Shown here piece by piece: positions 1-45,317 of a stretch of DNA of 64,000 nucleotides; the first letter of the stretch is position 1, and each line of letters opens with the position of its first letter. The stretch covers positions 395,470 through 459,469 of the forward strand of contig CAWIZL010000004.1 of NCBI GenBank assembly GCA_963840645.1. Direction: 5' to 3'. Made by a program: the position numbers and the translations under genes. Under the pieces are notes generated by a model that saw only the letters and a list, made by a program, of their open reading frames with translations, did not search any database and had not been told where the DNA came from. The stretch comes from Candidatus Doudnabacteria bacterium (GTDB lineage: Bacteria; Patescibacteriota; Doudnabacteria; UBA920; VMFF01).

Positions 1-343
1 TCGTGATGCGCCTGTGTCCGCCCTCGTGGCAGATGACGAAGCGCAGGTAGTCCATTGATTTTTCCAGTAGATCCTGGGGATCGATCCTGATGATGTTTTC
101 CTTGAAATCCCAGTGCCAGCCCTGGCCGGGCTCGTTCAGCTCTACGGGAATGCGGAAGTCCTTGCCGATGAAGTACGCCAGCGAAGAGAGCACCTGCTGC
201 TTGCGTTTAATTTCGGCCTGCTGCTCGGGGGTGAACTGGGCGAGAATATCCCTTTCTTTGTTACCCCTCAGCGCGTGGAAGGCCTGCTCTGGCTGCGCTG
301 CAACCGCTGTTTCTATGGGAGATGTATTTTCAGGATTGCGCAT
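1..343 (-). CDS. HExxH-motif metallopeptidase-like protein, N-terminal part (gene continues past left edge)
   Basis: Minus-strand ATG at 343-341. Own translation MRNPENTSPIETAVAAQPEQAFHALRGNKERDILAQFTPEQQAEIKRKQQ...MDYLRFVICHEGGHRRIT stays open to the window edge and contains HEGGH. Not in the ORF track because there is no stop in the window. Confidence 0.55.
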   Translation of the reverse strand, partial: MRNPENTSPIETAVAAQPEQAFHALRGNKERDILAQFTPEQQAEIKRKQQVLSSLAYFIGKDFRIPVELNEPGQGWHWDFKENIIRIDPQDLLEKSMDYLRFVICHEGGHRRIT

Positions 344-398
344 AAATATGCTTACATGGTAGCAGAATTACAGAATGTTTTCCATTTATGTTATGCGA

Positions 399-592
399 GA
401 CATCCAATCAGCTTCACCCTCACCCACATGGGAAAGTGTTTGCTCAACGGGGCACGATCCCGCAACCTTCCGCGCCACAGGCGGACGCTCTACCAGTTGA
501 GCTACACCCACCACGAGTGTATGAACCAAGAAACAAAAAACTCTCACACAGAAAAAGTGAAGAGCTTCGGTAACGCCCGCTGTGTCAGGCGC
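399..592. repeat. 194-bp direct repeat, left copy (partner 10978..11171)
   Basis: By-eye alignment: 449..592 is identical to 11028..11171 (about 144 bp). 399..448 differs at 7 positions (G/A, CTCAC/TGTAG, C/G). Confidence 0.9.
447..512 (-). pseudogene. tRNA-His(GTG)-like fragment lacking a 3' acceptor strand
   Basis: Reverse complement GGTGGGTGTAGCTCAACTGGTAGAGCGTCCGCCTGTGGCGCGGAAGGTTGCGGGATCGTGCCCCGT. It has G-1, acceptor 5' strand, canonical D arm and an anticodon arm with GTG. The T loop is ATCGTGC (non-canonical) and no CACCCAC(C)CCA follows. Confidence 0.45.
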
Positions 593-651
593 AGTCCTTA
601 TTGAACTACTTAATAATACTACCCAATTTATACGCGTCCGTCAACCACGAT

Positions 652-680
652 TTGACAAGAATCCTAGCCTATGTTACGAT
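652..680 (+). promoter_or_regulatory. sigma70-like promoter of the ABC exporter leader
   Basis: TTGACA (652-657), 17-nt spacer, TACGAT (675-680). Confidence 0.55.
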
Positions 681-686
681 ACTAAC

Positions 687-886
687 AATATTTCCATTAA
701 CTGGGGAAGCCCAGAGAAAGACGGCTGACCGCTAGGATATGTCTTTGCGATTGGTTGCACTTTCTCCCCGGCCTCTGCCGGCAAGCATAATGGCCTAGGC
801 TAGGAACGCCTACCACACCTTGCCCCCAGCAGCCGCGGCGAAAGCCTCGGCTGTTTTTTGTTCTTTGAAAATTTGAAGGAGATGGA
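687..886 (+). promoter_or_regulatory. ~200-nt 5' leader ending in an intrinsic terminator (candidate riboswitch or attenuator)
   Basis: Lies between the promoter and the SD/ATG of the ABC exporter. Terminator at 830-859. CGGCTG at 722-727 repeats the terminator 3' arm and could pair with its 5' arm CAGCCG as an antiterminator. Confidence 0.4.
830..859 (+). terminator. intrinsic terminator inside the leader
   Basis: CAGCCGCGGC-GAAA-GCCTCGGCTG stem with a GNRA loop followed by TTTTTT, 27 nt before the ATG at 887. Confidence 0.7.
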
Positions 887-2647
887 ATGTTCAAAACGTA
901 CGCACAGCTGGCTGAACTGCTCAAGCCATTCCGAAAAAAATTCTACCTGTTCCTGCTCATCGTGCTCGTGTACGAAGCAGCGCAGGTGGTCAACAGCTAC
1001 ATCCTCACCGGCGCAATCCGCATGTACCAGAACAGCGCCAGCACGTGGGTGTGGGTCGGCTTCTTCGTAGCGCTAGAGGTTTTCGACACGCTCTTCCGCC
1101 TCAACGATGGGTTGCTCGACTGGCACATTGTCTCAAAGCTCCTGTTCCCGATTGCCAAGCACGTCGACATGCTCGTGCTGAAGGTCTTTTTGTCACAGGA
1201 TGCCGCATGGCACCAGCGCAACAACAGCGGCGTGCTCATCGGCAAAGCGGACAACGGCAAGCGCAAAGTAGAAGAGGTTGCCGACATGATGGCGTGGGAG
1301 TTCATCCCCACGTCCATGCAGGCAATCCTGACCCTGCCGCCGCTCCTGTACTTCTCACCGCTCATCGCGGGCATCACCCTAGCTTCGCTCGCCCTGTTCA
1401 TTGCAGTCACAAAAAGGGGCGAAGACTTCCGCCTGCCCATGCGGGTAGAGCGGCACAACCTGTACGAGGAACTGTGGCAGAGCACAGAGGAAGCGGTCAA
1501 GGCACACGAGACCCTCTCTATCTACGGCCAGGTTGACCGAACCATAGCAGAGCACGATGCAACCAACGACCGCATCACCGAAATTGGCAATACAGAAGCA
1601 CGCAAGACAATCTTTCGGTACAACGCAATCCGCAGCGCTGTCATACAGAACACGAGCAGGCTCGTCCTGGGTGTGCTCATGTGGCAGGTCTACCACAAGA
1701 CCATAACGGTCGCCGAGGTATTCTTCGTGTACACGCTCAGTGAACGACTGCTCGGCTCGTTCTGGCGGTTCGCCAGGATGATTCGACGGGTCGGCGAGTG
1801 CAGCGAGGGCATCAACAGGCTGCACAGGCTCAGCAAAGAGCAACCAGAAATTGTCGATGGGCCAGAAACTCGGCACAACCTCGTCGTCCCGCGTCACCTG
1901 ACCGTCGAGTTCAGAGACGTCACGTTCTGCTACCCGGGCATCGCCAGGGAAGCAATCAGCAACGTGAGCCTGGTGGTGAACGATGGCGAGCAGGTTGCCA
2001 TTGTTGGCCCATCAGGCTCAGGCAAGACCACGCTGAGGAGGTTACTGCTCCGCCTCTTTGAGGTTACGAGCGGTGAAATTCTCATCGGCGGCATACCCAT
2101 TAAGCAGTGGCCGCTCGAAACGCTCAGGTCGCTGTTCGCGTACGTGCCGCAGGGGGACGAGGTGTTCATATTCGATAGCGATATCGAGCAGAACATTCGG
2201 CTCTCACGGCCAGAGGCAACCGAAGCAGAGGTTGCCGTGGCGGCTCGGCAGGCTGGCCTCAGCCAGTTCATAGAGTCGCTGCCAGACGGCTACAAAACAA
2301 AAGTCGGCGAGAAGGGCATGAAGCTATCTGGGGGCCAGAAGCAGCGCATGGCTCTCGCGCGTGCAATCGTCAGCGGCAGGAGGTTCCTGATTCTGGACGA
2401 GGCAACCAGCTCTGTAGATGCCTTAACAGAACAGGAAATACAGCACGAACTCAAGGAGGTTCTCAAGGGGGTAACGTCTATCGTCATCGCCCACCGCATG
2501 CCCACCATCTGGGGTGCGGACAAAATTGTGGTCATGAACAACGGCGGCAAGGAAGCAGAGGGCACGCACCACGTGCTCATGACCGAGACCGACGGCATCT
2601 ACCACAGGATGGTCAGCTTACAAACCATCCACGAACATCTAACGTAG
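887..2647 (+). CDS. ABC transporter, fused permease/ATPase (exporter type)
   Basis: 586 aa. The N-terminal half is hydrophobic. Walker A GPSGSGKTT, signature LSGGQKQR, Walker B FLILDEATSSVD. SD GAAGGAG upstream. Confidence 0.92.
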   Translation: MFKTYAQLAELLKPFRKKFYLFLLIVLVYEAAQVVNSYILTGAIRMYQNSASTWVWVGFFVALEVFDTLFRLNDGLLDWHIVSKLLFPIAKHVDMLVLKVFLSQDAAWHQRNNSGVLIGKADNGKRKVEEVADMMAWEFIPTSMQAILTLPPLLYFSPLIAGITLASLALFIAVTKRGEDFRLPMRVERHNLYEELWQSTEEAVKAHETLSIYGQVDRTIAEHDATNDRITEIGNTEARKTIFRYNAIRSAVIQNTSRLVLGVLMWQVYHKTITVAEVFFVYTLSERLLGSFWRFARMIRRVGECSEGINRLHRLSKEQPEIVDGPETRHNLVVPRHLTVEFRDVTFCYPGIAREAISNVSLVVNDGEQVAIVGPSGSGKTTLRRLLLRLFEVTSGEILIGGIPIKQWPLETLRSLFAYVPQGDEVFIFDSDIEQNIRLSRPEATEAEVAVAARQAGLSQFIESLPDGYKTKVGEKGMKLSGGQKQRMALARAIVSGRRFLILDEATSSVDALTEQEIQHELKEVLKGVTSIVIAHRMPTIWGADKIVVMNNGGKEAEGTHHVLMTETDGIYHRMVSLQTIHEHLT

Positions 2648-2669
2648 CAAACGCTCAGCGCATTCTACA

Positions 2670-2697
2670 GGCGGCTCTCACCAGGGCCGCCTTTTTT
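2670..2697 (+). terminator. intrinsic terminator after the ABC exporter
   Basis: GGCGGCT...GGCCGCC stem followed by TTTTTT. Confidence 0.7.
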
Positions 2698-2898
2698 AAT
2701 ACCAGGCTCGTAAAGAACACCTTTGATTCTCCGCGTGCCAGATGAGACAGCTTCTTCTTTCACAACCTTGAACTCTCAGCACAGGGCTCTCAAGTTTGTC
2801 ACCGAAGCATCTGGAAACGGGGTCATGATCTCATGGCTCCAAGCGCTACCGATAGCGAGCTCTCTGAAACATAAGGCATTTGCCATAACAAAATAAAA

Positions 2899-3441
2899 CT
2901 ACCTGTTTACAAAAACCCCGTCCTCTTCCCGAAGAAAGAAGACGGGTTGGCTTGACCACTTCTCGATGCCGAGCAGCGCCCCGTACATCATGTACAGGAG
3001 AGGCCAGAGCGGGAACGTCATCACGATGCTGCCCGTGAAAGCTATGAGGTCGTACACATCGCTGAACCACGCTTTGGCCTGAGCCTTACGCAGCTCGAGC
3101 TGGGTTACGCGGTGGGTGTCGATGGCGGCGATGCGCTCCTCAGGCTTGAACTCTCGGGGAGCACTCCCGATGCTCGCCATCCAGCCCTGGGAGAACCCGT
3201 GCCGCTCCTGGGCTCTGCGGATCCTGTAGTTGAAGTACTTCTCCAGCACCCACGAGACGTGGAATATTGCCACGCCCATGAACATGGGGATCAGCGACCA
3301 CTCTGGCACAAGCCCTCGCTCGTTGCCGTGGGGGTCGTGCAGGATTGCACGGGCGTGCGGAATGGCAGCCCGCAGCCAGATGCAGCACAGCAAAACAAAA
3401 ACCGCTACGTACAGGTACAGCCGAAGCTTCTTGACGTTCAT
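2899..3441 (-). CDS. membrane protein, unknown function
   Basis: ORF 2899..3465 trimmed to MNVKKLRLYLYVAVFVLLCC... with SD AGGAGGAG immediately upstream. Several hydrophobic segments. Confidence 0.6.
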   Translation of the reverse strand: MNVKKLRLYLYVAVFVLLCCIWLRAAIPHARAILHDPHGNERGLVPEWSLIPMFMGVAIFHVSWVLEKYFNYRIRRAQERHGFSQGWMASIGSAPREFKPEERIAAIDTHRVTQLELRKAQAKAWFSDVYDLIAFTGSIVMTFPLWPLLYMMYGALLGIEKWSSQPVFFLREEDGVFVNR

Positions 3442-3456
3442 ACTCCTCCTTTTTTC

Positions 3457-3520
3457 TCTCACCACAGCAAACCATCGAGTGATTTTCTAAGGTGAAGGCT
3501 CGGATGGTTTCATCCGAGCC
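3457..3520 (-). promoter_or_regulatory. conserved intergenic hairpin motif, copy L1, plus adjacent GC hairpin
   Basis: tctcaccacagcaaaccatcgagtgattttctaaggtgaag aligns with the four copies at 43.7-45.4 kb. The GC hairpin gctcggatg...catccgagc lies at 3498-3520. Confidence 0.6.
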
Positions 3521-3559
3521 GTAAGTTGGGCATGCGCATTCTGCGCATGCGGTTGGAGG

Positions 3560-4955
3560 CTACCTCTGAGAGAGGTTCGCGAGGCGGTCGAGGTACGGCT
3601 TTGCCTCGTCGCCGAAGACAGCCTTGACCCTTGCCTCGAAGCCCTCGCGGAACTTCCCGCTGGCTCGGGCAATGGCGGAACGCAGGCTGTAGCCGAGCCT
3701 CCTTGCTGTAGTAGCCGAAGTCAGCCTTGAGGAACTTCTCCCACGGGCCGTTGGTGAACTTCCCGTTGAGCTGGTCCCGCATCTCGAGTGCCTTGATCGC
3801 CCACTCGAGCTGCTCGCGCTGCGAGAGGTCTGCCCAGGTCTTCTTGGCGCGGCGGGGGCTCCTCGGTTGTGCCTGAGCCGTGTGCGGTGGCTCGGGAGAT
3901 GCCTGCGCCTGTGGAGCATGGCCGTTGGCTATGCTTGTTCCCCGCGCTGCATCGAGCAGGGCGCGGAATGTGCTGAGCTGCTGGCTGTCGGCCAAGAGCT
4001 GGGTGTACTCGGCTTGTATATCGCCGCCCAGCACCCTGACGAGTTCGTTGAGTCTTGAGGTATTCTCCATCTTCGTTTCACTTCCTTTCGTTGCGGGTTG
4101 AACTGCGATTGGTTGAACTGCTGTACCAACGGGTGGCACGCTGACCTCAGCGAATGCCGTCGCGTTGGCAAAGAAAAGTTTGCTGCCCACCCACGCTTGC
4201 GCGAAGGCGAGCTCTGAGCAGCTCGGTGTTTGCTGTCCGAAGTGGAAGAAGTACGTTCGCATTCGGAAGGGCTGGCGCTTGTAGCGGCTGACGTAGATGT
4301 ACCTTTCGATTAAGACAGGCACCCACGGCAGCTGCTGAACGCGCAGGAGCTCGGCCATCTCGATGAGCAGGCCGAACTCGCGCTTGGCAGCCTTGGCCGC
4401 ATCAAAGGGCTTGAAGAAAGCCGAGGCATCCTGCCTGACGGGCACACAGCGCTGTTGGGCTACGAGTTGGTCGTACAGGGTGCTTGCCTGTGAGCCGAAC
4501 AGCCGCTTGCCCCGCGCTCGGAAGCTCGGCCACTGCTCGAGCACCAGGTTGCGCCGCTGGTCTGCAACCGTGATTGCCAGGCAGCAGCCAGTGCTCTTCA
4601 GTACGAGCGGGAGCACGGGTGAGAAGTTCTGAATAGCCGCGTTGCTCATGGTTCCACACAAGTCGAGGTGGAAGCCGTCAATGTACGCCCGCGCTTCGCC
4701 GTGTCCAGCGAGGATGCGGTCGAAGGTTCGGAGTTGGTTGTGCGTGCCGTAGCGGTGGGTAGATATGAGATCGCCCGCCCGCTGCCTGTTGCGCTCGATG
4801 AGCCAGCCGTGCTCTGTGGGAACGTTGAGTTCCGACCAGAGCTTGGCTTCTAGGCCTCGTCCGCCCAAGGTCGCAAGCTGCGCCTGCCCGATGGGAACGT
4901 ACCGCGACAGGAACGATAGGAAAAGTCGAATTACCTGCTCTTTAGTAGCCTCCAT
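3560..4955 (-). pseudogene. hypothetical protein, apparent frameshift near 3695-3712
   Basis: The 481-aa ORF reads MEATKEQVIRLFLSFLSRYVPIG.... After ...ADFGYYSKE a plausible C-terminus (RLGYSLRSAIARASGKFREGFEARVKAVFGDEAKPYLDRLANLSQR*) continues in the frame of ORF 3560..3919. Confidence 0.5.
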
Positions 4956-5066
4956 AAGGCCTCCTGATAGATTTGAAAAAACATTTCCGCAGAGAAAAAT
5001 TTCTCAACAGAACTATCAATTGTAATAGTAAATCATCTTTTTGTCAAGTCGAGAAATAAGGCGAAA

Positions 5067-5095
5067 TTGACATAATTGATTAAAAAACCTATAAT
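5067..5095 (+). promoter_or_regulatory. sigma70-like promoter
   Basis: TTGACA, 17 nt, TATAAT, 26 nt upstream of the ATG at 5121. Confidence 0.65.
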
Positions 5096-5120
5096 ACTGT
5101 GAATCCTGAGGAGGGTTGAA

Positions 5121-5882
5121 ATGGAACCGCAAAAGAAATCGCCCGCACTACCACTCGAAACTTTACAAAAGGTTGTTGAGCTGCGTAACACGCGAGAGAT
5201 TTCTCGCGCAGTTCAATACACCGAAGAAGAGCTGGCAACGCACCTGCAGCTCGGAACAACGGACACCGAATCCAAACAGCTGCTCATCGAGACCCTGCTG
5301 AGGCTCATCAAGGACATTGGCCTTGGACAGGACAACGTAGAGCTATCGGCAGCAATCGATGCACTGCTGGAAACCGTAGAGCATCTCGACCGCGCCGCTC
5401 TCGACTTGGTAGCTGGCGCAGAAGCGCAGGCTGCTGAACTTGCCGAGGAGCTCACGCATGTGGAGCCACGATCAGAGCAGTCTCTCAATCTAACGCTCGA
5501 CCAGATCTGCACCGAACTCCGCCGCCGCGAGCAGTGGAGCGATGCAGTCAGGAACGTCCAGGAGCACCTGGAAAACGAGCGGGATACGAAACGGGAGAGA
5601 CTGTCCGTGACGACCCAGCTTCTCAACCTCGATGCATGTGAGGATGAGCAGGCGGCTAGAGCAGAGAAAGGCCGTCTGGAAGCAGAGCTCGCCAGCGAAG
5701 AAGGCGTGATCACGAGCATTGTCACAATGCTCGCCGAGAACGACCAGGAGATCGGTACGCTGCTCTCGTACCGACAGGCCATCAAGCTGGTGGCGGCTGG
5801 TTTCCCAACCACCCTCATCGGCAAGCCGTTCCGCTACTTCAACAACTTCGGCGATAAAAATAACCCCACGACCAGTACTTGA
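5121..5882 (+). CDS. acidic coiled-coil-like hypothetical protein
   Basis: 253-aa ORF with SD GAGGAGGG and a strong promoter upstream. Confidence 0.6.
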   Translation: MEPQKKSPALPLETLQKVVELRNTREISRAVQYTEEELATHLQLGTTDTESKQLLIETLLRLIKDIGLGQDNVELSAAIDALLETVEHLDRAALDLVAGAEAQAAELAEELTHVEPRSEQSLNLTLDQICTELRRREQWSDAVRNVQEHLENERDTKRERLSVTTQLLNLDACEDEQAARAEKGRLEAELASEEGVITSIVTMLAENDQEIGTLLSYRQAIKLVAAGFPTTLIGKPFRYFNNFGDKNNPTTST

Positions 5883-5915
5883 TCGTGGGGTTCTTTGTTT
5901 GACTTCAGAGCGTTG

Positions 5916-7427
5916 CTACTTGAGGAATTCGCCCCTGACCTCGTTGGCGAACATCATTGCCTGGTAGCGGTCAGAGGGGAACTTGCTCGCGCCGATTGCC
6001 ATGAGCACCTGGACGAAGCAGTGTTCGCGCCGGGCGACCTTCTGGTCGGGCAGTGCCTTGTACCCCCCCCTCACATTCACGAAGATCATCTTCGGATTGT
6101 TGGGGCTGACCTGGGCAAAGACGTATGGGTGGAGCGTCTGGCCGCGGTAGAGGTAGAAGACCTCGTCGCGGACGCGGATGGCGATGTGCCGCCGGTACTG
6201 CCGTTCAGGGTCGGGTTCTCCCTTCTCGCCGCCGTCATCCTTACCGCCAGGTTCGGCGGGTTTCGGATCGCGGGGCTTGCGGGGCTCGCCACCCTTGTCA
6301 CCATCATCGATGATGAGGCCGAACCGTTCGTTGAACAGCTCTGCAAGCTCGTCCAAGGTTTCCGCAGCACTACCGTTGATCGAGTCCCGCTCGATGAGCT
6401 GCTTTGCCTGTGATGCGACGTCCCTGATGAGGAACATCAGCAGGCGCTGCCACTCCTTGTTGCCCTTGCGGGTGAACTCCTTGGCGAGCGTGCTACGCGC
6501 GGTGTTCTGGTGTCGGAGCAGCCCTGGTGCGAAGATGTCCCCGACGAGATCGGGGTACCACAACGGATCGGGGAGCAGCCTGCCAAGCTTCTGGCAGCTC
6601 GCCACCCGAAACCCTGTCTCATCGTCGCACAGCCAGATGCCGTCGCTGTCGGTGTTGCCCGCGGCGAGGCGGGCACGGTAGCGCCCGTCGGTTGATGACA
6701 GGTTGATCTCCTTCTCGAGCGGGGGCGGCTGCATTGCCTTGCCACCGATCGTGAGATCGAACATCTTGTCCTGCTCGCGCGGGAGGAGCCACTTGATTGC
6801 CTCGTAGATCTCGGCGTGGCTCTTGAAGATGGGGGTCGGGATGACGATCGCCGTGAATGGTCCCTGGAGGTTCTTGAGAAGCCCATTTCGGTGGATGTCG
6901 CTGAGATGAAGCGCTCGGTGTCGAAGCCCTGCTCCGTCTCTGCCTTCTCGGGGATGACGGGCACGAAGCGGACGTTGCCCGTCTTCGACGTGCGGGTGAG
7001 CAGGTAGTAGCCGTTCTTGATGCGGGTCATGACATCGTCGTGCAGGCAGTTCTCGTTGAGAGCGAGCGCCGCCAGTCGGCCGATGCCCTTCTGGGATGCG
7101 CCGCCGTACGATCCGTTCACGTGATTGCGGAGCTGGCTCAGCGGTGTGCCGAGCCAGTTGAAGTAGCGCTCGAGCGCTGGATCGGTCAGGCCGCAGCCGT
7201 GGTCCGAGCACGACGAGTGCCGGGCTCTTGCTGGGCGAGAGCGGGTGGTTGGGAACGAGCGACAGCTCGATCTTCGCCCGCTTGGGTTCCCAAACGTTGG
7301 GGTTGGCCATGCTGGCGACGACTGAGTTGCGCACCAGCTCCATGAGTCGCTGCCCGACGCTCTCGTAGAGGCCAGTGGCGAGGTTGTCGACCATGTGGAA
7401 CGCGGTAACCTTCATCTGGAATTTCAT
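5916..7427 (-). pseudogene. GHKL (HATPase_c-like) ATP-binding protein with two compensating frameshifts
   Basis: The N-terminal and C-terminal parts read in the 503-aa ORF frame. The segment ~6900-7205 only makes sense in the frame of ORF 6437..7120: DHGCGLTDPALERYFNWLGTPLSQLRNHVNGSYGGASQKGIGRLAALAL, which contains the DxGxG and GxxGxG boxes. Confidence 0.7.
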
Positions 7428-8125
7428 GACTTTGCCTTTCCCTTTCTCTTGCGACGTGGCAGTCCTATGTCTGAGAGGTCTTCTCTCGTCACAGGCTGGT
7501 TGCGAGCCGCGTTCGGCTCTGGGAAAACTACGGTGATGGCAAACGCGTCGCAGATTTTCTGCAGCGCACCGCGGATTTGCATCCGATCGCCATCGTAGAC
7601 ATCTGCTGGTGCTACGCCAGACTCAACAATCAGCCCGACGAGCGAGTTGAATAGAGATATGGTGTGGTCAATGAGCTTGCGGATGACCCCTGATCCAGGA
7701 CGATTGGTTGGTAGTTCAGCAACTGATATTTCTACAGCTGCAAGTGCCCTGCATGAATCATGCTCGTCACCGTTCTTGGGTTGTTGTTGGATTTCGATCT
7801 CCAGGAACGTGGCGTCCCCCAGTGCTTTGAGGGTGCGGAGCACGAGCTGGATATCTTTTTCCAACATAGGTGATTTACCAGACAGCCAGTGCCGTGCTTC
7901 GTGGAAGGATTCGCCCCTCATGTTTAGGTAGTGGCGGCAGAAGAAGCGAACCGCGTTGCGGGTTGCGCCACTTTCCGTGGGACTCTTGCTGGTGATGGCC
8001 GCCTCAAGCTGATCGAGCATCTTCGAGAAATCCCAACTCAGGGTTTCCTCATTGAGCTCGCTAGCTATGGACTGCTTGGCTCGTTCGTACGTATCCGATT
8101 GGCTTTGCGTGAGCTCTGAAGCCAT
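7424..8125 (-). CDS. hypothetical protein, upstream partner of the GHKL ATPase
   Basis: ORF 7424..8227 trimmed to MASELTQSQSDTYERAKQ... with SD AGGAGG. Its stop overlaps the GHKL start by 4 nt. Confidence 0.6.
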   Translation of the reverse strand: MASELTQSQSDTYERAKQSIASELNEETLSWDFSKMLDQLEAAITSKSPTESGATRNAVRFFCRHYLNMRGESFHEARHWLSGKSPMLEKDIQLVLRTLKALGDATFLEIEIQQQPKNGDEHDSCRALAAVEISVAELPTNRPGSGVIRKLIDHTISLFNSLVGLIVESGVAPADVYDGDRMQIRGALQKICDAFAITVVFPEPNAARNQPVTREDLSDIGLPRRKRKGKAKS

Positions 8126-8206
8126 GTAAAAACCTCCTCTAAAATTGGGAAACTGCATTCTCGACTTTCTTCGGGGTACAGCTAGGTATTGCCAGAAGAA
8201 TTCAGA

Positions 8207-8235
8207 ATTATATGGTATATTTGACAAAATGTCAA
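8207..8235 (-). promoter_or_regulatory. sigma70-like promoter of the two-gene operon
   Basis: Minus strand reads TTGACA, 17 nt, TATAAT. Confidence 0.65.
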
Positions 8236-8299
8236 CTATTTTTCGGGCATGAAAAAGCCACGGATTCCCATTAAATCCGTGGCTGTGGTTGAGCGAGGG

Positions 8300-9154
8300 C
8301 TACTTCTTGGGTGCCCGTGCCCCCTTGATGAGGCTGTCGAGGTTATCGAGCGCCCCCTGGAGACGCGAGACTTCTCCCTGAAGCTCCTTGTTTTGAGCGG
8401 CGAGAGCGGTATTCTTGCCAGTCAGATCTGCCATTTTGTCGACCAGCTCCCGAAGGCCAGCAATTTCCTCTTCTTTGGCCGTAAGTGCCAGCTGGAGCTT
8501 GTCCCGCTGCTCTATGACACCCCGCATCCGATCGCTGATCCTGAGGACGGCATCCTGAGCCTCGGCGAAAGCAATGCCGAAGCTATCAAGAGCTGTGAGC
8601 GCAGAATCGAGCTCTTCCGATTCCTCGGATTCGCCCTTCGGATCTCCCTGATCGGCAGTTGGCGTAGGCACTTCATTTTCTTGAAGTGCCACAGGTTGGA
8701 GCCTGGCATCAACCGTATCACTACGGTGCTGGTACTGAGCTGCGCCGTTGAGTACGGGGTGGAGACCGTTACCGTTTGCTTCCACAGGTGGTGCCGTGGT
8801 TTGCGCGGCTCCATTGCGGATGTCGGCCAGGGCGCCGATGATGTCCTTCACCTCGCCTATGGTCAGCGCTTGGTTCGGGCAGCAGGCACCTGCCTGCTTA
8901 GCGGCACGCCGCATGTTGGAGAGGGTGCCGTGGTTGGTAGCAACCATGGTCAGGACAACCCCGACCCTGGCAGAGACCTGCGATTCAGGCACCTGCGCAC
9001 GGAACTCACCCCTGATCCATTCGCCGCCACGGTTCATGGTTTCGATGAGCGACTTGACCTGGTTGAGGCCGCGGAAGTCGTCTGGCCCTACGACCAGGAC
9101 AACTTTTTCTTTCGGAAGCGTCTTTGGCAGCTGATTGAGAATGCCTTCTCTCAT
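8300..9154 (-). CDS. hypothetical protein with C-terminal coiled coil
   Basis: ORF 8300..9184 trimmed to MREGILNQLPKTL... with SD AAGGAGGAG. The C-terminus is heptad-like (LTAKEEEIAGLRELVDKMADLTGKNTALAAQNKELQGEVSRLQ). Confidence 0.6.
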   Translation of the reverse strand: MREGILNQLPKTLPKEKVVLVVGPDDFRGLNQVKSLIETMNRGGEWIRGEFRAQVPESQVSARVGVVLTMVATNHGTLSNMRRAAKQAGACCPNQALTIGEVKDIIGALADIRNGAAQTTAPPVEANGNGLHPVLNGAAQYQHRSDTVDARLQPVALQENEVPTPTADQGDPKGESEESEELDSALTALDSFGIAFAEAQDAVLRISDRMRGVIEQRDKLQLALTAKEEEIAGLRELVDKMADLTGKNTALAAQNKELQGEVSRLQGALDNLDSLIKGARAPKK

Positions 9155-9190
9155 AGCTCCTCCTTTTCGTGGTGTAAACACCAACGTAAT

Positions 9191-9219
9191 AATTTACCTC
9201 ATATTTGGTATTTTGTCAA
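9191..9219 (-). promoter_or_regulatory. sigma70-like promoter
   Basis: Minus strand reads TTGACA, 17 nt, TAAATT. Confidence 0.55.
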
Positions 9220-9315
9220 GTCCATGACTAGACTTTCTCGCGACTTCTTGTTATACTGGTGTGCTTCTTGGGCTGCCTACGGCAAATACCACCCAGAGCG
9301 TGCAGGAGGAAAATC

Positions 9316-9852
9316 GTGAACAGTTTCATGGAGTGGCTCGCCGACGAGGCAAAGGGCTTTAAGGCTGTCCTCGGGTACGTTGTCTTTGCGGCTCTCGTCG
9401 TCATATCTCTCGACTACGCAGTAGACTCTGCCCTCATCAACTTGGGCTTGGCGCCGTCGCCACCGCTCCCAGCGGTCGGGGACACCCCGTTCAGGTACTA
9501 CAACGCGATGATGTTCGCCACCATGTTTCTGTGGGGCCCCATCAAGGAAGAGGTTATCTTCCGCGTGCTGCCCCTGTCAGTGGTGGTCTCGTTCATTTCG
9601 AGGAAGCCAGCGTACGTGTTCGGGGCAATGGCTGCCTGCGCAGGAATTTTTGGCGCCATACACCCGTACGGATTGGCCGGGAAGACGCAGGTTGCCATTG
9701 CTGGCTTCTTCTTTGGCCTCGTGTTTCTGAAGTGCGGAGGTATGAGCAAGTCATTCGTAAAGGCTTCGGCCTGCGCGATGGCAGCCCATGGCCTGTCGAA
9801 CCTGTTCACCGTCATAGACGCGTGGTGGGACTACTTCGCCTTGGTGAAGTAG
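9316..9852 (+). CDS. CPBP (CAAX/Abi) family intramembrane glutamic endopeptidase
   Basis: Motifs EEVIFR (EExxxR), FGAIH (FxxxH) and HGLSN (HxxxN) in a multi-TM protein. GTG start 5 nt after GGAGGA; the ATG at 9328 is an alternative. Confidence 0.8.
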   Translation: MNSFMEWLADEAKGFKAVLGYVVFAALVVISLDYAVDSALINLGLAPSPPLPAVGDTPFRYYNAMMFATMFLWGPIKEEVIFRVLPLSVVVSFISRKPAYVFGAMAACAGIFGAIHPYGLAGKTQVAIAGFFFGLVFLKCGGMSKSFVKASACAMAAHGLSNLFTVIDAWWDYFALVK

Positions 9853-9905
9853 TCCCCTGGAGCATTAGTGTGCTGTTAGACATCAAAGATTGAAAAAGGA
9901 GGCAC

Positions 9906-10169
9906 GTGGTGGTGAAGTTTACGGTCGAGCAATTGGAAAACCCGCCGACGGTTTTCGGAATTCTACAGGGAGACTTTGGAGTCAGGGTCTTCTATAACCA
10001 GCAGGCTGGCATCAGAGCTATTGAAGATTTGAGCCAGTTCCTCTCTGGTGAAGAACAAAGAAAGCTGAAAGATCTCGTCCTGTGTGACAGGAAGCTGCCA
10101 GTACATGGCGAGACAGTGGAAATGGAAGAGCTGGTTGCGGAGGCTCTGCCTACCAACTATGTAATGTGA
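9906..10169 (+). CDS. small hypothetical protein
   Basis: 87-aa ORF with SD AAGGAGG upstream of a GTG. Confidence 0.4.
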   Translation: MVVKFTVEQLENPPTVFGILQGDFGVRVFYNQQAGIRAIEDLSQFLSGEEQRKLKDLVLCDRKLPVHGETVEMEELVAEALPTNYVM

Positions 10170-10236
10170 AGATAGATCAAAAGCAAAAGGGCGCAGCGGT
10201 GATTTACCGAAGCGCCCTTTTTTGTTCACAATTATT

Positions 10237-10881
10237 TTACGGTCTCTCTTTGTGCCACGGGGTCCACCCCGCTGGTGCCTTAACCAGAGTGGCCTGCTTC
10301 GGCTCCAGCTTGTATCGTCTGATGGCACGCTGCCATAGGGAATCAACTTGCTCAGAGCCCAGGACATCCTTAGGCAGCAAGCCTTTTGCCTTTGCATTGG
10401 CAATCTCGGTTCCCAGCATTTCCATGAACACGTAACGGACACGGTTGCGACCAACCTCGTCGTCACCGATCTCGTCTGCAACGTACGGAGGTAACGATTG
10501 CTCCTTGGCCTGCGTGAAGAGCTCGTCCGATTGCAGGGTAGATCTGAAGGTGTCGATTTTCTGCTTGAGGCCTCTGGCCTGGCTCATCAAGTACTCATAG
10601 TGCTCTTGGTAGGCCTCGAGCCAGAGTTCTAAATTTTTTTCTTGGTTACCAACTTCTTTTCCATGCGCGATCACCTGGTCGTAGTCCGCCCGTGCCCTGT
10701 CCATCTCTTGCTTGGCCTCTGCCATCATAGCTTCCGCAGCCTGTTCTTCCTCGGGTGTAGCCTCGGCGCGTAGCCCACTGGCTAAATCATAGTCAGCCTG
10801 GGTTTTCTTTAGAGTATCAACGGTCTCCGTGTGGTGCTCTAGGCTCTGGTAGTGCTCGCCTGCGTTGTGTTCGGTGTCCAT
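10237..10881 (-). CDS. hypothetical protein
   Basis: 214-aa ORF with no competing ORF. No obvious SD. Confidence 0.5.
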   Translation of the reverse strand: MDTEHNAGEHYQSLEHHTETVDTLKKTQADYDLASGLRAEATPEEEQAAEAMMAEAKQEMDRARADYDQVIAHGKEVGNQEKNLELWLEAYQEHYEYLMSQARGLKQKIDTFRSTLQSDELFTQAKEQSLPPYVADEIGDDEVGRNRVRYVFMEMLGTEIANAKAKGLLPKDVLGSEQVDSLWQRAIRRYKLEPKQATLVKAPAGWTPWHKERP

Positions 10882-10977
10882 GGGAGTAAGTTATAGTATT
10901 ACGGAAAGTATATCACTTTATTTGCCGGTACAAAAATTCTACGTGGTCAGGATCCTACTGATACTCACCTTAGGCAG

Positions 10978-11171
10978 GACATCCAATCAACTTCACCTGT
11001 AGCCACATGGGAAAGTGTTTGCTCAAGGGGGCACGATCCCGCAACCTTCCGCGCCACAGGCGGACGCTCTACCAGTTGAGCTACACCCACCACGAGTGTA
11101 TGAACCAAGAAACAAAAAACTCTCACACAGAAAAAGTGAAGAGCTTCGGTAACGCCCGCTGTGTCAGGCGC
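10978..11171. repeat. 194-bp direct repeat, right copy
   Basis: See 399..592. Confidence 0.9.
11026..11091 (-). pseudogene. tRNA-His(GTG)-like fragment, second copy
   Basis: Same 66-nt sequence as 447..512 except one base in the 3' strand of the T stem. It also lacks a 3' acceptor strand. Confidence 0.45.
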
Positions 11172-11208
11172 TATTCCTCACGTATCATAGCTTTTTTAAG
11201 ACCCCTCG

Positions 11209-12297
11209 TCAATTCTCATTCGTCTGCACTGGTTTCGCGTACTGGCTCACATCGTTCCACACGGCCTTTGAAATATCTGTCACCATCTGCTGCTGCGCGT
11301 CTAAGCTGCTGCCCTTTGTCATGACGCAGAGCAGGTAGTTGTTGCTGCCGCCAGTGGAATCTTTGCCGTACACAATGCCGCAATCGTGGAACTCGTACAC
11401 CGTTGCGCCGCTGCCATCAGTGGCAGCTTCTGAACGCTCGCCAAACTTGTGAGCAACAGTTGTGCCAGATGGCACACCTGCCACCAAACCGCCCGTGTAG
11501 TCTGTCTGCGTCAGCAGCTCGAGCGCTTGGTTTGAGTAGTTGTGATCAAGGTACGCTGCATTGTACAGCGCACGGAAGAACAGGGCGTAGCTGCGCGGCG
11601 AAATGAAGTCTGCGTTGGTCGTGCTGGTCGAGAGCGGCAGGTTCACGCCAAAGTCTGCAAAAATGTCCTGCACCTTGCTGGCTGTCACCAAGTTCAGCAG
11701 CGCGTTGAACGCGTTGTCGTCAGAGTAGCGAATCATGTACGAGATCATGTCGTTCACCGTGTACGCCTTGCCGAGCGTGATAGACTGCGACGGCTTTATG
11801 TTCTGCGATGGAATGTAGTCTGGTCCGTTGTAGATAATTTTCTGTTGGAGCAGTGCTGGGCTGTCCTCTGCCTCAGAAAGAATTGCCATCATGAGCGGTA
11901 CCTTGCTGAGGCTGCCTGGCGAAAACTGGTCGTCAGGATTGACGCCAACCCAGCTTGGGTCTGTGAGGTCGCGGAAGTAGACACCAATGGTGGTGCCAGA
12001 GTTAGCCTTAACAATTTTTGAGACGTCAGAATCAATGTGCGCCTCGTACGGGTAGCGCTGTTCGTAGAGCTCCTGCGCATTGAGGTCACCCCCAAAGTAG
12101 GGGTTCAAGAGCGGGTACTGCGCCAGTGTCTGTGGCTGCTGCACGTAGTTAGAGAGAGCCAGCACGTTTGGGCCTATTGTGCGTCTCACACGAAAGTAGG
12201 CAGCTGCAAATCCAGCTGCTACAAAAATTGCGGCAACGGCAACAATTGCCCATGCGTTCCTCTTCATCCACCTGCCAAACTGCCGTAGCTTCGCCAT
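11209..12297 (-). CDS. serine hydrolase, class A beta-lactamase-related
   Basis: N-terminal TM anchor. SxxK as SLSK (GSLSKVPLMMAIL), an SDN-like motif (YSDDNAFN), and HKFG in the position of KTG. Confidence 0.7.
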   Translation of the reverse strand: MAKLRQFGRWMKRNAWAIVAVAAIFVAAGFAAAYFRVRRTIGPNVLALSNYVQQPQTLAQYPLLNPYFGGDLNAQELYEQRYPYEAHIDSDVSKIVKANSGTTIGVYFRDLTDPSWVGVNPDDQFSPGSLSKVPLMMAILSEAEDSPALLQQKIIYNGPDYIPSQNIKPSQSITLGKAYTVNDMISYMIRYSDDNAFNALLNLVTASKVQDIFADFGVNLPLSTSTTNADFISPRSYALFFRALYNAAYLDHNYSNQALELLTQTDYTGGLVAGVPSGTTVAHKFGERSEAATDGSGATVYEFHDCGIVYGKDSTGGSNNYLLCVMTKGSSLDAQQQMVTDISKAVWNDVSQYAKPVQTNEN

Positions 12298-12298
12298 G

Positions 12299-13097
12299 CT
12301 ATTTTATGATCAAAGATAGAAGGCCAATGCAGATGCTGTAGATGCCGAACGGCACGAGCGCATTCACCTCGTTCTTCTTGAAGTACTTCACCAAGAATGA
12401 AACTGATGCGTACGCAACAACGCCTGCAACCACGCCCCCTAAAACTGCAACGCCAAAGTTGCTGTGCATGCCAGGCTTGAGCAGCTTTGGCACTTCGAGC
12501 AAGCCCGCTGCCAGAATAATTGGCGTTGCAAGCAAGAACGAGAAGCGAGCTGCTGCCTCGTGGCTAAGGCCTGCCAGCAGGCCGCCAACGAGCGATGACC
12601 CAGAACGTGAAATTCCCGGAATGAGCGCGAGCGCCTGTGCTGTGCCAATCCAGAAAGCCTGCCACGGCGTGAGGCGTTCGAGCGAGCCGCGAATGCGCTC
12701 TTGGCGGCTCAGCCACTCACCTGCCAGCAGAATGGTCACCGTTCACAATGAGGAACATTGATGCAACCACAAAGCTCCCATACAGCGGTTCTAGTTTTTT
12801 CTGCAGCAGCAAGCCGAGGATGCCAGCTGGGATTGTGCCGACAACCAAGAGCAGCAGCAAGTTGTCTTTGCGCCAGTTCTTGATGATGCTCACCCAATCG
12901 CGCCAGAAGTAAGCAACGAGTGCGAGCGCAGTGCCGAGGTGCAGCATTGTGAGGAATGGCAGGAACTCTGGGTCGTTGATATTGAAGTGTAGCCCGAGCA
13001 AGTGTGGCAAGATGACCGCGTGACCAAGACTGCTGACTGGAAACAGCTCTGTAATTCCCTGGACTACTGCAAACACGAGTGACTGGAAGATTGTCAT
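12299..13097 (-). pseudogene. uppP: undecaprenyl-diphosphate phosphatase, split by a frameshift near 12735-12742
   Basis: N-terminal ORF 12717..13097 (MTIFQSLVFAVVQGITELFPVSSLGH...) and C-terminal ORF 12299..12739 (...ALIPGISRSGSS...) together form a full BacA/UppP. The junction reads LIVNG/VTILLAGEW. Confidence 0.85.
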
Positions 13098-19500: not shown

Positions 19501-19563
19501 TGGTGGAGGCTGTGGGACGAAGTTAGAGGGGAGATTGCTAAAATTAACTCGCCCACCTATTGA
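19501..19563 (+). repeat. attL of element A: tRNA-Lys 3'-end core TGGTGGA fused to the orphan recombinase tail (RLWDEVRGEIAKINSPTY*)
   Basis: tgg tgg agg ctg tgg gac gaa gtt aga ggg gag att gct aaa att aac tcg ccc acc tat tga. The core and reading frame match the recombinase A / tRNA-Lys junction at 22922. Confidence 0.75.
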
Positions 19564-21308: not shown

Positions 21309-21469
21309 TTAAGTGGTATATGTATCTAGTATAACGGGAACATGGAGACAGGGGCGCAAAACGCAGGGAGCAGCGTGGGCGCGTGGCAGTGCCACATTGC
21401 CCCCGCAGCCACGGGAGCGGCGAAGAGCTTGAGACAATACCCAAAGGCGAGTATCCTGCTGATACCAAC

Positions 21470-21497
<28 letters not shown>
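21309..21497 (-). CDS. remnant of a small Pro-rich protein (homolog of 27593..27796), 5' end overlapping recombinase A
   Basis: The C-terminus ...NVALPRAHAAPCVLRPCLHVPVILDTYTT aligns in frame with ...GVAAPPRTPPAPCPPVILDI of element B. The N-terminal part is antisense of the recombinase start. Confidence 0.3.
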
Positions 21498-22997
<1,500 letters not shown>

Positions 22998-27796: not shown

Positions 27797-27885
27797 CTCA
27801 CTTAATCCGAAAATGGAAACAATGAAACATCTGTTCTTGAATGTCAAAGTGGCAAAAGAAATTTTTAAGTAGTAGAATGCCTACC

Positions 27886-29403
27886 ATGAACATTCTCTAC
27901 TGCCGTAAATCATCAGAAGCCGCTGACAGACAGGTGGCATCCATAGATTCCCAGAAAGACACCCTGCTTGAGCTGGCTGAAAAGTCTGGCTTGGGTGATG
28001 TTAAAATTTTCACCGAGAGCATGTCCGCCAAAGAACCAGGCAGGGTAGAGTTTGCAAAAATGATTACGCTGGTCAAGGCAAACCCAGGCAGCACATTGCT
28101 CGTGTGGAAACTAGACAGGCTTGCTCGTAATCCCGTAGATGAGGGAGAAATAAAATGGCAGTTGCAGATTAAAACAATTGCACGAATCATCACGCCCGAG
28201 AGAACCTACTACCCAGAAGACAACTCTTTGATCGCCTCTGTGGAGTTCGGCATGGCAACTCAGTACATCAAAGATTTGTCTGCCAACGTAAAGCGCGGCA
28301 ACAAGAGCAGACTAGAAAAAGGTGGGCTGCCTGGCGCAGCACCGATTGGCTACTTGGACAACAAGCTCACCAAGCACAAAGAGGTTGACCCTGTGAGGTC
28401 AGTCTTCATCAGGCAAGCATTCGAACTGTACGCCACTGGTGGGTACTCGCTCAAGCAGATCAACGTAATGATGCACGAGAAAGGCTTGCGCAGTAAGGGT
28501 GGGCTGAAACTCAGCAAGTCGAAGATGCACTACATGCTACAGAACCCCTTCTACCACGGCATCATCCGCAGGGACGGACAATTTTACAACGGCGCACATG
28601 AGCCGCTGGTGTCCACACAACTGTTCCAAGACGTACAGCGCGTCCTGTCGGGCAAGTCTCGCCCACGACCTCAGAACCACTTCTTCCACCTTAGAGGCAT
28701 GGTGTCATGCGCCCAGTGTGGCTGCGCCTACACTGGCTCAGACAAGAAAGGCCACGTGTACTACTACTGCACGAACGGACGAGGCAAGTGCGATCAACAT
28801 AAAAAGTACATCAGCAAGAAAGCTATCGATGAGCTGACTGCAAAACTCTTCACCGAAATTCAGTTCTCCGAAGAAGCCATTGAGATTGGATACCTTGCCG
28901 CCAAGGAAAACGCCGTTGCACAGTCCAGCTCTTCGCACACCCAAGAAAGCGAATCCTCCAAGAGGCTCAAGATCGTCCGCCAGCAGCTCGCGAACCTCGT
29001 GGAGGTAATCGCGACTGACCCGAGCACGGTGAACGTGCTCAAGCCCCAAATCTTGTCTCTGGAGGCGGAAGCAAAAGCAATCGAGGGTCAGGTTTCAACT
29101 GCCAAGCCCCAAACGCTCGATGAAGCCTTATCTACTTTGGAACAAACAAAAAAGGCCTTTCTACAGGCCTCTTCTGCTAGTTCTGACTATTCAAATGGCA
29201 CTGATGCGTACAAGTTTGAAATGCTCAAAAATTTACTTTGGAACTTTTCACTGGAAGACCAAACTGTGCAGTCGTACCAGTTCAAAACGCCGTTTTCTCT
29301 GCTCGCCAAATCCCCTAAAAACCTCGATTTGGACAGGTGGTGCGCCCGGCAGGATTCGAACCTGCTACCTTGTGGTTCGAAGCCACACGCTCTATCCAAA
29401 TGA
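27886..29403 (+). CDS. large serine recombinase B
   Basis: Paralog of A, with most positions identical by eye. Zinc ribbon CAQCGCAYTGSDKKGHVYYYCTNGRGKCDQH. The last ~22 codons are antisense of tRNA-Arg. Confidence 0.9.
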   Translation: MNILYCRKSSEAADRQVASIDSQKDTLLELAEKSGLGDVKIFTESMSAKEPGRVEFAKMITLVKANPGSTLLVWKLDRLARNPVDEGEIKWQLQIKTIARIITPERTYYPEDNSLIASVEFGMATQYIKDLSANVKRGNKSRLEKGGLPGAAPIGYLDNKLTKHKEVDPVRSVFIRQAFELYATGGYSLKQINVMMHEKGLRSKGGLKLSKSKMHYMLQNPFYHGIIRRDGQFYNGAHEPLVSTQLFQDVQRVLSGKSRPRPQNHFFHLRGMVSCAQCGCAYTGSDKKGHVYYYCTNGRGKCDQHKKYISKKAIDELTAKLFTEIQFSEEAIEIGYLAAKENAVAQSSSSHTQESESSKRLKIVRQQLANLVEVIATDPSTVNVLKPQILSLEAEAKAIEGQVSTAKPQTLDEALSTLEQTKKAFLQASSASSDYSNGTDAYKFEMLKNLLWNFSLEDQTVQSYQFKTPFSLLAKSPKNLDLDRWCARQDSNLLPCGSKPHALSK

Positions 29404-29414
29404 GCTACGGGCGC
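29338..29414 (-). tRNA. tRNA-Arg(TCG)
   Basis: GCGCCCG TA GCTC ATTTGGATA GAGC G TGTGG CTTCGAA CCACA AGGTA GCAGG TTCGAAT CCTGC CGGGCGC A CCA. Confidence 0.92.
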
Positions 29415-35631: not shown

Positions 35632-35810
35632 TGGAGCGGGAGGCCAAAGCTTTTGCTTTGGCACTTCCATTTCGATTTGCTCCGCAAATCAAATAGGTGA
35701 AGGTCGCTTGGCCGTTCGGCCTTCGCTGCCGCTCAGGCACTCCGGCACCGCCTTGCAACTCCAGACTGTGGAACGAGGTTCGAATGGAAATAGCTAAAAT
35801 GCTGCCTTAA
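35632..35810 (+). repeat. orphan tail c1: tRNA-Gly core TGGAGCGGG (35632) separated by a 125-nt insert from the tail LWNEVRMEIAKMLP* (35766-35810)
   Basis: Hairpin plus core at 35601-40, as found left of tRNA-Gly. The tail is ctg tgg aac gag gtt cga atg gaa ata gct aaa atg ctg cct taa. Confidence 0.6.
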
Positions 35811-37718: not shown

Positions 37719-37794
37719 TGGAGCGGGCTGTGGAACGAGGTTCGAAGGGAGATAGCTAAGAATTCTACTTTTCAAACAGGCTAACGTACTCGAA
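37719..37794 (+). repeat. orphan tail c2: TGGAGCGGG plus [18 protein letters not shown]
   Basis: tgg agc ggg ctg tgg aac gag gtt cga agg gag ata gct aag aat tct ... taa. Confidence 0.7.
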
Positions 37795-38991: not shown

Positions 38992-39085
38992 CCTTACGGT
39001 GCAACAAAAAACACCAATGTTTAGTTGGTGTTTTTTGCTGGAGCGGGCTGTGGAGCGAGGTTCGAAGGGAAATAATTAAGAATAT
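38992..39085 (+). repeat. copy of the tRNA-Gly downstream flank (38992-39038) plus orphan tail c3 (TGGAGCGGG plus LWSEVRREIIKN...)
   Basis: ccttacggtgcaacaaaaaacaccaa is identical to 47711-47736. A hairpin follows, then tgg agc ggg ctg tgg agc gag gtt cga agg gaa ata att aag aat. Confidence 0.7.
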
Positions 39086-40486: not shown

Positions 40487-40501
40487 TCTACCACACCAAC
40501 T

Positions 40502-40573
40502 TATTGGAATGAGGTTCGAAGTGAGATAGTTAAGAATTCTGGTTTAGTTTATAGCCTTTCCCGTAAAGATTGA
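40502..40573 (+). repeat. orphan tail c4: YWNEVRSEIVKNSGLVYSLSRKD* (no Gly core)
   Basis: tat tgg aat gag gtt cga agt gag ata gtt aag aat tct ... Confidence 0.6.
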
Positions 40574-43591: not shown

Positions 43592-43712
43592 GGTCTTGCA
43601 CACTCCACTTTTCCCTGGTTACTCCCAGAGAACACAGAGACCTAGAAAAAGTAGGTAGCTGAATACTCTGGAAGTACGCCTAGTCTGGTTCAATAAACAA
43701 GCCTCCTTTATG

Positions 43713-43774
43713 TTCTCACCTCAGCAAACCACGGAGTGATTTCCTAAGGTGAGTGCAGAAGTTTTGGCTTCTGC
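43713..43774 (-). promoter_or_regulatory. conserved intergenic hairpin motif L2 plus GC hairpin
   Basis: ttctcacctcagcaaaccacggagtgatttcctaaggtgag, then gcagaag..cttctgc. Confidence 0.65.
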
Positions 43775-44208: not shown

Positions 44209-44239
44209 TACGTTCCTCTCCTTTGAATTGAAGTTTTGT

Positions 44240-44306
44240 TTCCTCACCTCAATAAACCAAGATTGATTTGCTGAGGTGAGGCTCGCAGGGATTGGTGTCT
44301 GCGAGC
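44240..44306 (-). promoter_or_regulatory. conserved intergenic hairpin motif L3 plus GC hairpin
   Basis: ttcctcacctcaataaaccaagattgatttgctgaggtgag, then gctcgcag..ctgcgagc. Confidence 0.65.
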
Positions 44307-44590: not shown

Positions 44591-44638
44591 GCTGTTCGTT
44601 CTCCTTTGGATTGTAGGTACCGTCGATTGATTTTTGTG

Positions 44639-44700
44639 TTCTCGCCTCAACAAACCACGAAGTGATTTCCTGAGGTGAGTCGCCAACGTTGAGGTTGGCG
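44639..44700 (-). promoter_or_regulatory. conserved intergenic hairpin motif L4 plus GC hairpin
   Basis: ttctcgcctcaacaaaccacgaagtgatttcctgaggtgag, then cgccaac..gttggcg. Confidence 0.65.
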
Positions 44701-45278: not shown

Positions 45279-45317
45279 TTTTCATGCCTCCTTGTGTCGA
45301 GAACCCTTGGAGTTGCT

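Follow-up and report, generated by a model that had tools for sequence, protein, structure and literature searches.

Paired direct repeats with 3'-truncated tRNA-His sequences around a GC-richer 10.4-kb interval: possible traces of tandem integration in a Patescibacteria contig

How does a bacterial chromosome come to carry the same tRNA gene twice, each time without its 3' end and each time as part of a direct repeat, at the two sides of a 10.4-kb interval of higher GC content? This question is raised by a 64,000-nucleotide (nt) stretch of contig CAWIZL010000004.1 of Candidatus Doudnabacteria (positions 395,470–459,469; the whole stretch analysed here, referred to as the window), in which two direct repeats each contain a 3'-truncated tRNA-His sequence. 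The explanation put forward here, which has about an even chance of being correct, is that the repeats are 5' fragments of a tRNA-His gene displaced by tandem integration, with the intact gene lying to the left of the window.

The left repeat (391–592) and the right repeat (10970–11171), both read on the minus strand, are 202 nt long each, share 96% identity at a spacing of 10,579 bp and constitute the sole repeat family of such length in the first 14 kb of the window. Each comprises an 80-nt leader (592 to 513 in the left copy, 11171 to 11092 in the right), the tRNA-His fragment (512 to 447 and 11091 to 11026, respectively) and a tail (446 to 391 and 11025 to 10970), which is common to both copies, begins TGAGCAAACACTTTCCCATGTGG and bears no similarity to tRNA. 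A preliminary description of this locus, made from the letters of the sequence, had reported direct repeats with a 3'-truncated tRNA-His around a GC-richer island of about this size, and this is borne out, as the GC content is 56.5% between the repeats versus 51.3% in the rest of the window; yet the region at 43–46 kb also reaches about 55–58%. The block of about 144 bp that was said to be identical in both repeats is likewise found (449–592, 100% identity over 144 nt), but the tRNA portion, given as two-thirds of the gene, is in fact about 85% of it.

Both fragments extend from position -1 to position 65 of tRNA-His and contain G-1, the acceptor 5' strand GTGGGTG, the D arm, the anticodon arm (anticodon GTG), the variable loop and the complete T arm, while the 11 nt that make up the acceptor 3' strand, the discriminator and CCA are missing. 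The similarity to tRNA ends after ...CCCCGT at position 65/66, where the T stem meets the acceptor stem, so that the T arm is left whole. Thereafter both copies continue as TGAGCAAACAC, which offers no pairing acceptor 3' strand, discriminator C73 or CCA; thus, of the features expected of a functional tRNA-His, G-1, the GTG anticodon and the D, anticodon and T arms are present and the entire 3' end is absent. The Rfam tRNA model (cutoff 29 bits) aligns both copies solely over model positions 8–63 of 71, scoring 37.4 bits for the left copy, the T arm of which is intact by comparison with complete genes from other genomes (L002 and L007, see below), and 29.3 bits for the right copy, in which one pair is marked as non-standard and C in place of G creates an additional T-stem mismatch at position 64. 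The five tRNA genes that ARAGORN identifies in the window are ordinary ones with an encoded CCA, and neither fragment is among them, in agreement with the earlier statement that neither copy folds into a complete tRNA. The two fragments, which lie just above the Rfam threshold, should accordingly not be counted as tRNA genes by annotation pipelines. Apart from these two partial tRNA matches, no Rfam family is found over positions 1–12000.

The T arm itself is not aberrant. When its 22-mer was scanned against one genome per species, it matched intact tRNA-His genes in two metagenome-assembled genomes (MAGs) of Candidatus Saccharibacteria (L002 and L007) and in one Omnitrophota MAG (L006), all of which contain the identical T arm GCGGG-ATCGTGC-CCCGT followed by CGCCCAC-C-CCA. 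The T loop ATCGTGC, which had been regarded as odd, is thus normal in Saccharibacteria, a point that calls for caution in annotation pipelines. Five further matches of the 22-mer, all from Pseudonocardiales, are not tRNAs and represent a chance match inside conserved coding DNA. The fragment in the window is 88% identical to the tRNA-His sequences of the Saccharibacteria MAGs, and the best named relatives of the window's proteins belong to groups of the candidate phyla radiation (CPR); judged by these two measures, the window is Patescibacteria/Saccharibacteria-like. Since tRNA-His is normal in the Saccharibacteria MAGs and a full histidyl-tRNA synthetase (HisRS) is encoded in the window, an intact tRNA-His gene is expected elsewhere in this genome.

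One of these related genes also provides a local parallel to the truncation. Comparison of L002 (329–399) with L007 (6860–6930) reveals a 59-nt insert directly 3' of the intact tRNA-His of L002 that is not found in L007, and this insert is flanked by a 14-nt direct repeat, GTCGCCCACCCCAA, starting at tRNA position 64. Its appearance is that of a minimal scar, left by integration or excision where the T stem joins the acceptor stem. A broader synteny between L002 and the window, suggested by equal lengths of open reading frames (ORFs), was considered and rejected, as the 362-aa proteins are unrelated and the exporters are merely 31% identical.

The two repeats have not diverged evenly. They differ at nine positions (394, 397, 398, 411, 419, 420, 421, 423 and 448 in the left copy), eight of which fall within the 56 nt of the tail and one within the 146 nt of leader and tRNA part (Fisher p = 1.7e-4), the lone mismatch in the latter, at 448, being the one that disrupts a T-stem pair of the right copy. 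The tails of the two copies agree completely over their initial 24 nt, and a cluster of mismatches then spans the five consecutive positions 419–423, with conserved stretches on either side. This unequal and clustered divergence points to two related attachment-site arms on one shared block rather than to uniform drift after a single duplication. Outside both repeat ends, the similarity between the copies falls to noise, the flanks being non-homologous on both sides. In this otherwise non-homologous DNA, a sigma-70-like promoter is predicted just outside each copy and directed into it, both on the minus strand, namely TTGACG-17-TAGTAT (616–644) for the left copy and TTGACG-17-TATGAT (11184–11212) for the right copy, the latter overlapping the stop codon of a beta-lactamase-like gene. 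A promoter in front of each copy is what would be expected if an element replaced the 5' end of the gene, as such an element would need a promoter of its own.

The position of the cut is a known one. In the Islander survey, integration splits a tRNA gene and the island restores it, so that the regenerated gene and the displaced fragment mark the two island ends, and the crossover falls at one of three sublocations, i.e. the anticodon loop, the T loop or the T-stem/acceptor-stem junction (PMC4383910). The cut at position 65/66, its coincidence with the junction sublocation and the scar at the same place in L002 support the reading of the locus as a product of integration. The atypical composition of the enclosed DNA, the prevalence of ORFs without a family and the loss of synteny near the right repeat count in the same direction. 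With respect to composition, the tetranucleotide deviation at 1–7 kb is among the highest in the window and is equalled solely at 22–25 kb and 29–31 kb.

The repeats would thus be 5' tRNA-His fragments, each made of a transcribed leader and positions -1 to 65 and ending at the crossover point that integrases use between the T stem and the acceptor stem. A circular element carrying its own leader and 5' part of tRNA-His behind its own promoter would have recombined with the chromosomal gene, whereby the original 5' fragment would have ended up at the distant (right) side of the insert, joined to element DNA that is seen today as the tail, and the gene's 3' end would have passed to the element's own 5' copy. 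Thereafter, the regenerated gene would have received a second, related element in the same way, so that the copy brought by the first element (the left repeat) would have become truncated as well and acquired a tail related but not identical to the first. Along the tRNA strand, the order would be the chromosome on the beta-lactamase side, the fragment with the tail of element A, the body of element A (593–11025), the copy contributed by element A, by now a fragment itself, element B's tail running off the window and, finally, the intact gene. Region 593–11025 would accordingly be one integrated island that has lost its integrase and partly decayed, the DNA to the left of 447 would be the start of a second island, and the working tRNA-His would lie further left, outside the window. 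With such a tandem arrangement, the sharp outer boundary of the repeats, the perfection of the block they share, the divergence between their related tails and the presence of a promoter before each copy would all be accounted for.

Structures of this kind are uncommon but catalogued. Of the 3919 islands tabulated by Islander, 3760 carry a 3' fragment and 159 a 5' fragment, and 125 tandem arrays are listed (PMC4383910). The earlier remark that the locus departs from the usual duplication of a tRNA 3' end is therefore correct in that the 5' side and its upstream DNA are duplicated here, but islands with 5' fragments are known. The present locus resembles them in possessing a same-orientation direct repeat of a terminal tRNA-gene fragment that ends at the T-stem/acceptor-stem junction, and also in its length (10.4 kb, within the range of 2–200 kb), atypical composition and mostly unknown function, tandem arrays being documented among them. 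It differs in that both copies are fragments and no intact tRNA-His is visible in the window, in that no integrase lies in the interval, and in that the repeat reaches 80 nt upstream of the tRNA and the copies share a related non-tRNA tail (PMC4383910). Thus a displaced terminal fragment in direct orientation and a crossover at a recognised sublocation are found, whereas an integrase within or overlapping the island is not. Compared with the usual 3'-fragment islands and prophages, of which the scar in L002 may serve as a local example, the same gene, the same position (64–66) and an element carrying part of its target gene are involved, while the duplicated part is here the 5' side with its leader instead of the 3' end. 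Islands at the 5' end of dusA also involve the 5' side of their target gene, but that target is protein-coding and is used by a dedicated integrase family, none of which is detectable at this locus (PMC4482086).

Several observations weigh against integration at tRNA-His. The interval between the repeats (593–10969) contains no recognisable recombinase, as neither an integrase nor a serine recombinase nor a transposase was found by a six-frame Pfam scan of 2648–10969 or by ORF scans against Pfam, NCBIfam, PHROGs and PADLOC, a result that agrees with the preliminary description and leaves the interval without the integrase by which Islander recognises an island. No intact tRNA-His was found by ARAGORN in the 64 kb of the window, and the expected 11-nt 3' end, CACCCACCCCA, does not occur in it either, the sole match with one mismatch (at 47195) being at chance level. 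The promoters outside the two copies are predicted and consist of consensus matches only. A related element, the tail sequence and the identical tRNA block are all unmatched in viral and metagenome collections, where scans with a 32-mer of the tRNA-His fragment and with 22 nt of the tail returned zero matches; no further copy of the repeat was found in the window or in the public collections searched, and no viral relatives of two proteins of the putative island were found. The ABC exporter at the left end of the interval forms, together with its leader, a conserved unit in several CPR genomes (see below) and may be resident rather than cargo.

The surroundings of the right repeat add to these difficulties. 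The nearest relative, at about 85% nucleotide identity (L009 and L010), has BacA and the beta-lactamase-like serine hydrolase gene (11209–12297, minus strand) in common with the window. This homology extends exactly as far as the latter gene's stop codon; the right repeat, 37 nt away, is thus placed at a synteny breakpoint. In this comparison, of the kind that had been proposed as a search for an empty site, the repeat and the interval are lacking beside the beta-lactamase-like gene in L009 and L010. The neighbour found there instead is a CofE-like gene, convergent and overlapping, without a counterpart in the window, and no clean empty site is seen. As there is also no tRNA-His at this place in the relative, the right copy is not demonstrable as the original chromosomal site. 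A trypsin-like protease gene is present between BacA and the beta-lactamase-like gene in L009 (1057–2085) and is not found at the corresponding place in the window (about 12297).

The main rival explanation dispenses with a recombinase and is possible, although we consider it rather unlikely. In this scheme, an older tRNA-His pseudogene consisting of leader, positions -1 to 65 and tail would have existed beforehand, and the 10.4 kb would have entered via Campbell-type homologous recombination of circular or otherwise incoming DNA that bore a related copy, or the 202-nt unit would have been copied via segmental duplication or rearrangement, the repeats being plain homology instead of attachment sites. 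The lack of a recombinase between the repeats fits this scheme, as do the rearrangement of the region relative to its nearest relative and the perfect 144-nt block, which is an ample substrate for RecA. A further point in its favour is that the copies are truncated alike and agree in the initial 24 nt of their tails, which implies that the truncation preceded at least one duplication. However, it leaves unexplained why the truncation falls at a known integrase crossover site that was used in L002 too, why a separate promoter-like site stands before each copy and why the divergence of the tail is clustered and non-uniform, and it still requires an earlier event of the integration type for the formation of the pseudogene.

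The repeats might also be working parts of gene expression, an alternative that we regard as improbable, in which a promoter-proximal leader containing a structured element of tRNA origin would have come to serve on two occasions as the 5' untranslated region of the ORFs at 2–343 and 10237–10881, possibly as a processing or stability signal. Both ORFs lie on the minus strand directly downstream of a repeat and in its orientation, the former encoding the N-terminal 114 aa of a protein with an HEGGH motif (the gene leaves the window) downstream of the left copy, and the latter an orphan acidic protein of 214 aa downstream of the right copy. The distances from the repeat to the start codons are 48 and 88 nt, respectively, a promoter-like site stands ahead of each copy, and no terminator is called after the tail, all of which is compatible with such a module, as is the perfect conservation of the 144-nt block in the presence of a tail that is not so conserved. 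The two downstream proteins are, however, unrelated to each other, which also led to the rejection of a tandem gene duplication with the two ORFs as paralogues. Moreover, the fold of the tail is neither conserved nor exceptionally stable (z = 0.07 and -1.72), the T stem of the right copy contains a broken pair, and no other copy of the putative module is found in the window or in public collections. The usual tRNA-processing enzymes would also have no standard substrate here, as the acceptor stem is missing.

Still less probable is an artefact of assembly, in which one tRNA-His locus would have been mis-joined or collapsed in duplicate when long reads or metagenomic data were assembled. Frameshifts in genes of the interval (GHKL-like) as well as beyond it (BacA) suggest an error-prone assembly, and the structure is seen once, in a single source contig of 523,761 bp. 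What speaks against an artefact is that nine positions differ between the copies, that their four flanks are all different and non-homologous, and that both copies are incomplete, which simple mis-joining at a genuine tRNA gene would not bring about.

That one of the copies gives rise to a functional tRNA-His in an unconventional manner, the acceptor 3' strand being supplied from elsewhere as in a split tRNA or by a downstream UUCCCAU after a 12-nt insertion, can hardly be credited, for although the left copy shows no defect between G-1 and position 65 and is preceded by a promoter-like site, no intact tRNA-His occurs in the 64 kb, and inspection by eye suggests that UUCCCAU, 12 nt past the T stem, could pair with GUGGGUG at six of seven positions (two of them G-U), this pairing is not recovered by folding, which does not restore the acceptor stem, neither CCA nor C73 follows UUCCCAU, a guide for joining in trans, complementary to the tail, is missing from the window, related Saccharibacteria have ordinary one-piece tRNA-His genes and 64 kb is a small part of a genome. 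In the split tRNA genes of Nanoarchaeum and some Thermoproteales, the break is mostly located after position 37 and the piece carries a guide complementary to the separate 3' piece. The fragments described here resemble these archaeal genes in being tRNA gene pieces without the 3' part and with a promoter of their own, but differ in that neither a complementary partner nor a 3' piece is present in the window and in that the relatives have one-piece genes. It is correspondingly very hard to believe that this bacterium has no one-piece tRNA-His gene at all and obtains its tRNA-His from a 3'-truncated gene and a separately supplied acceptor 3' strand, as a split or repaired bacterial tRNA.

The interval that would form the body of the island consists mostly of orphan ORFs. 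Besides the ABC exporter and a CPBP (Rce1-like) intramembrane protease (9259–9852, plus strand), no ORF has a family in Pfam, NCBIfam, PHROGs or PADLOC, and the CPBP domain is the only one recovered by the six-frame Pfam scan of 2648–10969. These two identifications agree with the preliminary description, but the GHKL ATPase that it had also listed (5916–7427, minus strand) gives just a sub-threshold match to HATPase_c_3 (E = 0.014) after two frameshift repairs, no relative in PDB was found for it, and its identity as a GHKL ATPase has been discarded. The frameshifts that had been noted in the interval are present, affecting this GHKL-like ORF and the C-terminal end of a 481-aa ORF (3510–4955), but they are found outside the interval too, where BacA (12299–13097) is split into ORFs of 146 and 126 aa; they may be sequencing errors or real pseudogenes, and may reflect the assembly rather than the island. 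The interval also contains one member (3450–3497) of a family of hairpin motifs of about 47 nt (CTCACCTCA...TGAGGTGAG), the other members of which lie in the GC-richer region at 43–46 kb (43707–43754, 44236–44282, 44633–44680 and 45313–45359).

The ABC exporter unit (652–2647, plus strand) comprises a predicted promoter (652–680), a conserved leader of about 200 nt and the exporter gene (887–2647), the GC content of which is as high as that of the interval. Orthologues at 60–76% identity are found in several CPR contigs with unrelated neighbourhoods, and the homology of this region to one of them, L019, spans positions 740–2696 of the window. The leader (652–886) is retained in the CPR orthologues (L015 9640–10000, L016 1040–1320, L017 3790–4075 and L019 2040–2342) and is composed of the promoter, several sequence blocks and covarying hairpins with compensatory changes in 11 of 24 predicted pairs, among them a terminator immediately before the ribosome-binding site. 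It matches no Rfam family and is a candidate attenuator or riboswitch, a proposal drawn from a comparison of four or five sequences alone.

The HEGGH-motif protein to the left of the repeats (2–343) belongs to a family (P0122–P0162) with 60–80% identity across CPR groups, the database members of which are mostly truncated. In L012 (4058–5223) and L014 (1866–3031), the HEGGH ORF is shortened and followed by a reverse-transcriptase gene (RVT_1), where an insertion of the intron type is possible, while in L011 a tRNA-Ser(gga) in convergent orientation comes after the HEGGH homologue. The latter contig also contains a direct repeat (1–121 and 4953–5074) of at least 121 nt and 98–100% identity, which is clipped by the contig start and contains no tRNA according to Rfam; it encloses about 5 kb with radical SAM, PNP_UDP and ABC-F genes and lies about 415 nt upstream of the HEGGH homologue. 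The contexts with tRNA-Ser and reverse transcriptase are compatible with a mobile setting of the left flank, but are not proof of it.

Elsewhere in the window, two paralogous large serine recombinases containing Resolvase, Recombinase and Zn_ribbon_recom domains (21383–22997 and 27841–29414) lie 6416 bp apart and share 69–80% nucleotide identity. Both run in antisense direction into a tRNA gene from its 3' end (tRNA-Lys, 22922–22997, and tRNA-Arg, 29338–29414, respectively), and their mutual similarity stops at the shared TGGTG, i.e. the CACCA of the tRNA 3' end. Both loci look like serine-integrase elements inserted at tRNA 3' ends; the far ends of both elements were not found. At the time of the Islander paper (2014), only tyrosine integrases were known to target tRNA genes (PMC4383910). 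A link between these recombinases and the tRNA-His repeats was considered and rejected, as their junctions lie at the tRNA 3' end versus position 65/66 and the tail has no sequence relationship to them. Domains of the Resolvase or Recombinase type are lacking in and beside the repeats. The window further contains five copies of a 45-nt motif, TGGAGCGGGCTGTGGAACGAGGTTCGAAGGGAGATAGCTAAGAAT (19501–19545, 35757–35801, 37719–37763, 39039–39083 and 40493–40537), which are 67–91% identical to the reference copy.

With a T loop that is normal for the lineage, a known class of 5'-fragment islands and a recognised crossover site, the structure is less anomalous than the preliminary description suggested, and the interpretation given there is partly supported. 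The locus looks like an uncommon but catalogued arrangement and not like a new kind of system, and the finding would matter far more only if the genome lacked an intact tRNA-His gene. If tandem integration at tRNA-His is the correct explanation, the intact tRNA-His and the responsible recombinase would be located just outside the window. The locus would then be an example, from the little-studied CPR/Saccharibacteria, of the rarer way of using a tRNA gene, in which the integrating element replaces the 5' end of the gene with its own promoter and leader.

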